A stretch of 64,000 bases of DNA from assembly GCA_000002435.2 (NCBI GenBank), contig CM018792.1; one strand, 5' to 3'. The notes beneath the pieces were generated by a model. The model saw only the letters and a list, made by a program, of their open reading frames with translations. It searched no databases and had not been told where the DNA came from. Both the position numbers and the translations under genes were made by a program. This DNA is from Giardia intestinalis. Taxonomy: Eukaryota. Of this stretch, positions 23,409-24,434 are shown in pieces (the first letter of the stretch is position 1; every line of letters starts with the position of its first letter).

Positions 23409-23900
23409 CTTAGAGTGCGCCATCGAGGAGGACGTCCCGATCGACGGGGTGTGCGTGCCGGCTGGGAGTGCTGCAGGAAACACGTGCGACAAGGGCGTCT
23501 GCACGACATGTGGCAATGGCTACTTCTTCCACTACGGGTCGTGCTACAAGTTCGGAGGGTCCCCGGGCGCCAGCATTTGCTCTGACACTACTGATACTAT
23601 TGGCTCTGTCTGTGGCTCTTGCGGATCGAAGTTCCTCAAGAACCTCAGTGCGAGCTCGTCTGCCACCTCCTGCCTCGCGTGCTACGGGCTGGACGGGACC
23701 CTCTTCTGCGAGCGCTGCCGGATGAACGTGCTCACGGACGCAGACGTGAAGCCCACCCTCTGCACACAGTGCAAAATAGGCTACGTGCCCGTGGATGGTC
23801 GTTGTGTGTCGACTTATTCCGCCTCAGCTGCACTCGCTGGATACTCAGATGTCAGCACAAGAGGGTTTCGCGAGCCAATATTGGTGGGCTCTGCTGGGAC
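23409..23900 (+). pseudogene. VSP/HCMP-like cysteine-rich gene fragment. It has no signal peptide, no transmembrane segment and no CRGKA tail.
   Basis: The open frame starts right after a TAA with no Met and reads CVPAGSAAGNTCDKGVCTTCGNGYFFHYGSCYKF...CLACYGLDGTLFCERC...CTQCKIGYVPVDGRCV. These are CXXC and GxCY motifs typical of VSP ectodomains. The frame then decays into a non-Cys tail. The segment is GC-rich. Confidence 0.55.
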
Positions 23901-24434
23901 ACTTGCAGCACCCTCACATGGATCCCTTTGTGTGTGTCTTCCACGACTATCCAGCTTGGGGATCAATGCAGTCTCTTATAGTTCTATAAACCCTTTCATT
24001 ACAGACTTTACTCGCATAACAATCTATGTATTATTACCAAGATTTACTGATAAAAGCACGGCTATTCATTGGCCTTTTCCTACTCACTGCGCTAATGCGG
24101 CCTGCTGCTAGTCCACCTAACTAAATCATTTATAGATAGTTTATCACATATAGCAGATTTATCAAATGAATAGGCCTATGGTGAGCCTTTGCTGTTAAGA
24201 TGACCGCCGAATGGTTGTCTGGATGTTAGATACTTTTATAGTAGCATTACTCGGAAAAATATACGCTTGTAAATATAAGAATAAAAGGCGCAAGAACTGC
24301 AGGAGGTCAAGACTTTATAAAGCTTCAGGTTGATTGGTTTAAAGTGATATGTCCAAAGTATTATTAGAGGCGTGCGTTTATGCGCGTGAAAATTCTTTGG
24401 AAATGTAGTAAGTCTTTTACCATTAAAAAATCCG

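Follow-up and report, generated by a model that had tools for sequence, protein, structure and literature searches.

A relic of an HCMP Group 3 gene in Giardia intestinalis, broken, truncated and probably overwritten in its middle by gene conversion from intact relatives

Giardia carries hundreds of Cys-rich surface-protein genes and pseudogenes, whose diversification among isolates has been described only loosely, most often under the label 'duplication followed by divergence'. Pseudogenes of the Cys-rich kind abound in this organism, and a preprint describes some that keep an open reading frame (ORF) but no signal peptide, the signal peptide lying in another frame, as well as others that are truncated at the C-terminus; it also lists unannotated intergenic similarities in the isolate WB, GL50803_intergenic2536 among them. 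Arrays of variant-specific surface protein (VSP) pseudogenes in G. muris have been proposed as reservoirs for gene conversion, and for HCMPs, divergence between isolates of assemblage A is on record, although conversion was not shown there as its mechanism at any one locus. Here, we describe a Cys-rich fragment found in a 64,000-nt stretch of the Giardia intestinalis WB C6 genome (NC_051859.1, ~864-928 kb; hereafter the window), within the spacer that corresponds to GL50803_intergenic2536. The fragment is a real pseudogene of an already known sort. Our favored reading, which we consider probable (about 0.8), is that an HCMP Group 3 gene copy was broken and truncated here and that its middle has been overwritten by ectopic gene conversion from intact relatives. 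Like the pseudogenes of the preprint, it combines a signal peptide in another frame with a C-terminal truncation; the preprint, however, does not describe this locus by anatomy, parent gene or comparison among populations, and the lesion map and the conversion evidence come from the present analysis. Like the members of the G. muris arrays and the VSG pseudogenes of T. brucei, the fragment is incomplete for its family and has mosaic tracts in common with intact genes, but it is single and chromosome-internal. Knowledge of this kind of element is unchanged, and the locus had not gone unnoticed: in WB it was listed as a similarity lacking annotation, and in the isolate DH it was called a 'partial VSP'.

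The open frame of the fragment starts at 23401, directly after a TAA (23398-23400), and runs for 236 codons to a TAG at 24109-24111; an earlier note on this DNA had placed its opening at 23409, and the TAA that it reported is real. The CXXC and GSCY-type motifs that it described over ~140 codons are also there: in WB, 16 Cys, five CXXC motifs and one GSCY fall within the first 150 residues, whereas the other 86 residues hold 5 Cys and have no family similarity. Residues 5-142 match positions 173-324 of the 397 in the Pfam profile PF03302 (VSP), with E=5.9e-8 and a score of 32.4 bits that is only just higher than the gathering cut-off of 31.4 bits. In a phmmer search of 1.84 billion representative proteins, the fragment matched P0025, which is GL50803_0027717, a full-length Giardia HCMP of 836 aa (E=8e-72), and P0001, the fragment's own ortholog in DH (E=1.6e-67), whereas the next match outside the Group 3 family was only 34% identical. 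Similarity to VSPs and HCMPs, on which the earlier note had staked its reading of the fragment, is thus present, and judged by these scores the family match is far beyond chance. The 90% cluster of P0025 also includes GL50803_00113987, encoded on the chromosome of the window, and P0099, the DH ortholog of GL50803_0027717. Further Group 3 members, GL50803_00103943, GL50803_00112126 and GL50803_0087706, together with a sixth tail of the same type, appear in the preprint tables S1 and S3, from which the Group 3 comparison sequences were taken. It was the exhaustive phmmer search and these tables that revealed the Group 3 parents; a word-indexed protein search with the fragment returned only the DH ortholog, and missed the Group 3 genes even when a Group 3 protein was the query.

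The five intact WB paralogs examined (on NC_051856, NC_051857, NC_051859 and NC_051860) are 80-86% identical in amino acid sequence to the WB fragment, and up to 94% identical to other alleles of it; by blastn, 23415-23846 matches positions 6378-6812 of L007, the DH full-length gene for P0099, at 82.6%. The Cys-rich block (23416..23850, plus strand), delimited by Pfam, phmmer and blastn, corresponds to residues ~116-262 of the 832-838-aa Group 3 proteins, with the same cysteine spacing and the same GSCY and CXXC motifs. Proteins of this group (CRMPs in a newer nomenclature) end in a transmembrane segment and a 29-residue cytoplasmic tail, FRRGGRPKRGAKYTSLMRGESYDYRQSLI, whose last residues are YRQSLI and not CRGKA. 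Since its closest full-length relatives are Group 3 HCMPs that end in YRQSLI, the fragment is an HCMP/CRMP relic and not a VSP cassette. With VSP genes sensu stricto, which encode a signal peptide, a CXXC-rich ectodomain, a transmembrane segment and a CRGKA tail, it shares the PF03302 ectodomain fold family and the CXXC/GxCY motifs. It differs from them in that it has no in-frame start with a signal peptide, in that neither a C-terminal transmembrane segment nor CRGKA is found in its ORF, in that its parent family does not end in CRGKA, and in that the best identity outside Group 3, VSPs included, is ~35-47%, against 80-94% to Group 3. The description of a VSP-like ectodomain fragment therefore holds for the superfamily and for the missing transmembrane segment and CRGKA, but not for the nearest relatives. 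Mutually exclusive switching of the VSP kind is not known for HCMPs.

Instead of the full ~830-aa Group 3 ectodomain with its transmembrane segment and 29-residue tail, the fragment represents only residues ~1-17 and 116-262. The first piece, at 23372..23421 (plus strand), is a remnant of the start and signal-peptide codons that reads MRILIFLLC and then falls out of frame. By blastn, it aligns with nt 1-51 of GL50803_0087706 (82%, E=1e-9) and of GL50803_00112126 (80%, E ~1e-9), and it also matches the signal-peptide codons of the DH gene for P0099 at 6041-6084 of L007. The signal peptides of Group 3 are of the type MR(A/V)LILLLLHGIFSEC, of which the disrupted remnant MRILIFLLC..GTFLEC survives in the fragment DNA, and the ATG at 23372 is the family start codon. 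Manual alignment shows that one base is missing from a run of CTT CTT CTT, and the TAA at 23398..23400 (plus strand), found in all five alleles compared below, replaces the parent His10 codon CAC. In WB, this TAA stands in the frame of the block, and a TAG at 23411-23413 stands in the frame of the ATG. The 1-nt deletion and the nonsense codon at His10 thus disable the start twice. The frame had been called start-less, which is correct for the frame as read, but the family ATG and signal-peptide codons do survive upstream, knocked out and in another frame. A mini-intron that would link the ATG frame to the block was considered and rejected: the GT-AG stretch around 23397-23412 is only 17 nt long, and known Giardia introns are far longer and carry GTATGT and a branch-site consensus, which are absent there. 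The lesion is read as a plain frameshift.

Bases 23416-23421 align both to nt 46-51 and to nt 346-351 of the parent, and 23416-23469 is 96% identical to parent nt 346-399 by blastn. Because these six bases belong to both alignments, we place at 23416..23421 (plus strand) the joint left by an in-frame deletion of 300 nt inside the gene (parent nt 52-345, ~100 codons), which took place at a 6-nt microhomology, TGC(A/G)CC; the deletion fuses signal-peptide codon 17 to codon 116, and codons 18-115 are missing. At the other end, homology stops at ~23846-23850, near codon 262, where the relic has 'ALAG-Y-SD' and the parent has 'ALAG-C-SD'; ~570 codons are gone from the 3' part, the transmembrane segment and the cytoplasmic tail included. 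A search for the closest full-length relative and for the truncation point, as the earlier note had suggested, thus leads to the Group 3 HCMPs and to this position. From 23851 to 24111 (plus strand), the frame reads through sequence that has no family similarity before it ends at the TAG. A degraded continuation of the gene in this tail was considered and rejected in favor of truncation, as Smith-Waterman scores of 23847-24111 against Group 3 proteins, against the DH gene and its downstream DNA, and against a second relic in the window were no better than those of shuffled controls. Hence, the view that the frame degenerates into non-Cys sequence with no transmembrane segment or CRGKA is right as to what is absent, but the tail is unrelated spacer DNA and not a decayed part of the gene. 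The tail is nearly invariant among alleles, except that the closing TAG of WB (24109-24111) is TAT in the four AII-type alleles, in which the ORF is three codons longer (…CCYST*).

Five assemblage-A alleles were compared: WB, DH (AII), and three from metagenomes, L002, L003 (identical to L004) and L014, all three from human-gut contigs on which the relic has the flanking genes seen in WB. Every lesion (the loss of 1 nt, the TAA, the internal deletion, the truncation at the 3' end) is common to all five, AI and AII alike, which dates the relic to before the AI/AII split. The fragment thus joins similarity to the family with disabling lesions that recur among isolates, as expected of a Cys-rich pseudogene of Giardia, and since this copy would be unable to make a secreted or membrane protein, we take it to be a pseudogene.

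It is the variation among these alleles that points to conversion. Over 20.6 kb, identity between WB and DH is 97.7%, yet their differences peak at 23449-23648 (31 of 200 sites, against ~1-2% elsewhere), with a second peak in the C-terminal half of the neighboring Group 4 gene; divergence is 12% in the block, 2-5% in the intergenic flanks and ~1% in the neighboring genes. Within a hypervariable zone at 23445..23762 (plus strand), which the allele comparisons indicate to hold the conversion tracts, the five alleles differ from one another by 5-18%. L002 and L003 are identical on either side (0/344 and 0/660 differences), whereas in the block they differ at 53 of 306 sites (17%). In a four-gamete comparison of four alleles, all three possible two-by-two partitions are present, at 18, 8 and 2 sites, and are interleaved between 23457 and 23745. 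Outside this interval, the differences are almost all WB-specific singletons, and the other variable sites outside the zone fit a simple tree (three shared by WB and DH, at 24090, 24091 and 24212, and some DH singletons).

The divergent segments match different paralogs. DNA identity to the gene for P0099 over 23419-23762 is 0.875 for WB, 0.942 for DH, 0.849 for L002, 0.988 for L003 and 0.994 for L014, and over 23763-23846 it is ~0.61-0.64 for every allele. The ~99% match of L003 and L014, followed by this sharp drop, argues for a recent copy of ~340 nt from a P0099-type gene, bounded at 23745-23763. DNA-level mapping of tracts relied on the DH gene on L007, the DNA of the WB paralogs covering their first 399 nt; for these, the matches are given as protein. 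The L002 protein is 92-94% identical to the subgroup of GL50803_0087706 and GL50803_00112126, and the other alleles match, in patches, the subgroups of GL50803_0027717/P0099 and GL50803_00113987/GL50803_00103943. The WB allele is made up of patches of the GL50803_00112126, GL50803_0027717 and GL50803_00113987 types, all alleles carry a 3' segment of the GL50803_00113987 type, and the DH fragment is a patchwork even relative to P0099, a paralog from its own genome. Moreover, the variable zone lies wholly within the core that is homologous to the intact genes, as conversion requires. Interleaved partitions, a divergent core between identical flanks, and tracts that match intact paralogs together indicate repeated ectopic gene conversion. 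The earlier suggestion of a candidate donor or relic cassette for VSP diversification by recombination is borne out insofar as the fragment is a relic whose alleles are mosaics of paralog tracts; its family, however, is HCMP Group 3 and not VSP. Exchange between the fragment and intact genes is evident from the alignments, and the clearest tracts are most simply read as running from full-length genes into the fragment.

The sequence of events was probably as follows. In a variable Cys-rich island of assemblage A, one gene copy of HCMP Group 3 died and suffered two deletions, and its ~430-nt homologous core would then have been overwritten repeatedly by inter-chromosomal gene conversion from intact paralogs. 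Import from functional donors would keep the frame of the core open and its 15 cysteines in place, and selection on the fragment need not be invoked. Conversion tracts would be limited to the homologous core, and the cysteines at its edges, beyond the reach of conversion, would have decayed: a Tyr codon replaces the edge cysteine at 23416-23418 in the AII-type alleles and at 23842-23844 in all alleles. Several points weigh against this explanation. Donors were mostly assigned from protein sequence and with the help of one DH gene. Short-read metagenomes supplied three of the five alleles, and in such assemblies threading through near-identical paralogs could make part of the mosaic chimeric; cultured isolates account only for WB (where the 2.76-Mb chromosome sequence is complete) and DH (assembled from an isolate). 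Absence of expression is presumed from the lesions alone. Finally, the frame open in five alleles could reflect selection on an internally started product, and the DH annotators did call a GTG-initiated 'partial' protein.

If conversion is at work, the locus offers a small, PCR-sized example of it in a family whose diversification is otherwise described in general terms: a relic between unique flanks, with a 300-nt core that differs by up to 18% between haplotypes with identical flanks. Each version of the core matches a different intact paralog on another chromosome, which would be direct sequence evidence of ectopic conversion in the HCMP family, and the locus could serve to measure the frequency of conversion.

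Exchange need not run in one direction only. The fragment could be kept as a donor cassette, a reservoir whose private variants pass by copying into the intact HCMP genes of Group 3, diversifying their ectodomains; we see this as possible, if doubtful. The fragment clearly exchanges with paralogs, and it holds variants (AIEED, SDTTDTIG, KFLKNL and ARGYFLHYG among them) that are unseen in the five WB paralogs and the one DH paralog examined. Furthermore, 'AASADSS', kept in the DH fragment, is present in GL50803_0027717 of WB and absent from the DH ortholog P0099, and could be an archived variant; the pseudo-VSP arrays of G. muris have been proposed as reservoirs of this sort. However, no tract has demonstrably moved from the fragment to a full-length gene, and the 99% identity of L003 and L014 to the gene for P0099 over 344 nt is explained most simply by copying from the intact gene into the fragment. 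In addition, the fragment is a single relic of ~430 nt and not an array, and as one DH paralog was sampled, the 'private' variants may sit in unsampled genes. A wider scheme, which we put forward as a speculation that would probably fail, has the relic as a node that both receives and donates in an inter-chromosomal conversion network, shuffling a ~300-nt ectodomain segment among assemblage-A Group 3 HCMPs in natural populations; it would store variants that have been erased from the intact copies ('AASADSS' in DH would be an example) and return them. In that case, a lone pseudogene in the interior of a chromosome would add to surface-protein diversification in G. intestinalis, and the locus would be a convenient marker for rates of ectopic recombination in an organism for which sexual or parasexual exchange remains a matter of debate.

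Conversely, the mosaicism might be only apparent, an assembly artefact laid over a static relic that has diverged by point mutation alone. The sequences L002, L003, L004 and L014 are contigs assembled from short metagenome reads, several paralogs in the same genome match the block at 85-99% identity, and contigs at the locus often break inside Cys-rich genes. Nevertheless, the contrast between block, flanks and neighboring genes is seen in the isolate genomes of WB and DH alone, with clustered differences and an in-frame indel, and the DH fragment is a patchwork against P0099 of the same isolate; the protein sequence of the L003 allele, moreover, was recovered on contigs of four assembly records (L003, L004, L005 and L006). 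We therefore regard an artefact as unlikely. Also improbable, and to a greater degree, is an RNA role in which read-through or antisense transcripts of the relic feed an RNAi-type silencing of homologous Group 3 HCMP genes. What speaks for it is circumstantial (~430 nt at 85-99% identity to expressed paralogs, in a spacer directly upstream of a transcribed HCMP gene), nothing in the sequence demands such a role, and Rfam gave no match in 22600-24500 at E<=1. Least of all do we expect a functional small gene, that is, a Cys-rich protein translated from an internal GTG or ATG, as called in DH ('VSP, partial') and in the metagenomes. In its favor, none of the five alleles closes the frame although they diverge by 5-18% and a 3-nt in-frame indel occurs among them, 15 Cys are retained in every allele, and gene callers have predicted products of 224, 223 and 132 aa. 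Against it, the first in-frame ATG comes only at Met107, the family ATG is out of frame with stops after it, a disulfide-rich ectodomain piece without a signal peptide would sit in the cytosol, WB RefSeq leaves the fragment unannotated and the spacer is listed as intergenic, the variation of the block is explained by import from paralogs, which preserves frame and cysteines automatically, and the edge cysteines out of reach of conversion have decayed.

Returning to the relic as a converted pseudogene, its distribution among lineages suggests that the site itself is prone to change. In assemblage B (GS_B, contig L011, 14187-20490), three different VSP-family genes in mixed orientation lie downstream of the ortholog of GL50803_0011932, the gene upstream of the relic; there is no relic ortholog there, local amino acid identity to the three genes being at most 47%, and synteny with a 393-aa gene of WB is not regained within 10 kb. 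Different Cys-rich genes at the corresponding position mark the site as a variable Cys-rich gene island. The relic was found in assemblage-A sequences only and is absent from GS_B, the one other assemblage readable at the locus. In three contigs from other Giardia lineages (L008, L009 and L010; GL50803_0011932 orthologs of 75-82% amino acid identity), the sequence stops 93-384 nt past the ortholog, which is consistent with repeated family DNA downstream there too. One protein-pattern scan and one exact 35-mer scan of JGI metagenomes gave no match.

In WB, the fragment sits in an unannotated spacer between GL50803_0011932 and the HCMP Group 4 gene GL50803_00114930, both of which are on one 2.76-Mb chromosome record and encode proteins identical to those of WB; the ORF at 18764-22654 is GL50803_0011932, as protein comparison shows. 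The 1780-nt spacer (window 22655-24434) is exactly GL50803_intergenic2536 (NC_051859.1:886654-888434). Its entry in the preprint supplement tables was located via its first bases, the sequence of the fragment itself not being found in these tables, and the offset between window and chromosome coordinates was confirmed with a second listed spacer. No coding sequence is annotated between the two genes in WB RefSeq, as also follows from their consecutive GenBank protein accessions. In DH, the orthologous ORF at the syntenic place is annotated as "Variant-specific surface protein, partial" (ESU37023.1) and is GTG-initiated. The unique spacer 5' of the relic (22849-23448) differs by 4-5% between WB and the AII-type alleles, the 3' spacer by ~2% and the neighboring genes by ~1%.

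The relic is oriented head-to-tail upstream of GL50803_00114930 (24435..26852, plus strand; outside the relic and given for context), whose ATG lies 324 nt 3' of the TAG of the fragment and ~590 nt 3' of its Cys-rich part, so that the earlier placement '0.5 kb upstream of an intact HCMP' was fair. The neighbor is intact: its product of 805 aa has a signal peptide, a transmembrane segment and a tail ending in CRGKRRYYR. The C-terminal half of this gene (25449-26048 and 26449-26648) is another place where WB and DH diverge strongly: differences number up to 35 per 200 nt, compared with 1-5 elsewhere. There, G+C reaches ~0.7, and metagenome contigs tend to break inside the gene. These observations suggest that this gene, too, exchanges sequence with paralogs.

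Other Cys-rich features occur farther along the window. The second, smaller relic of an HCMP Group 3 gene, at 55548-55708 (plus strand), consists of three patches (parent nt 112-160, nt 232-273 and codons ~282-314) joined by deletions, and reads YCSRCDEARVPVNGGCIRDFLFYRGGCYSVNGPLTQAICTTKN*IYFGGRAFC, with an in-frame stop. An ORF of 184 aa (55534-56088) overlaps it in another frame and is an apparent helicase fragment, its C-terminal part matching Pfam Helicase_C (E=2.3e-10). Finally, the VSP at 58668-61988 (plus strand) is genuine and ends in CRGKA; its gene contains a repeat array (58963-61871) in which a unit of 222 bp (74 aa) recurs in tandem 13.1 times, perfectly (100% matches), and its true start is likely to be an internal Met (MLVGFLLVCATVLA) and not the listed GTG.
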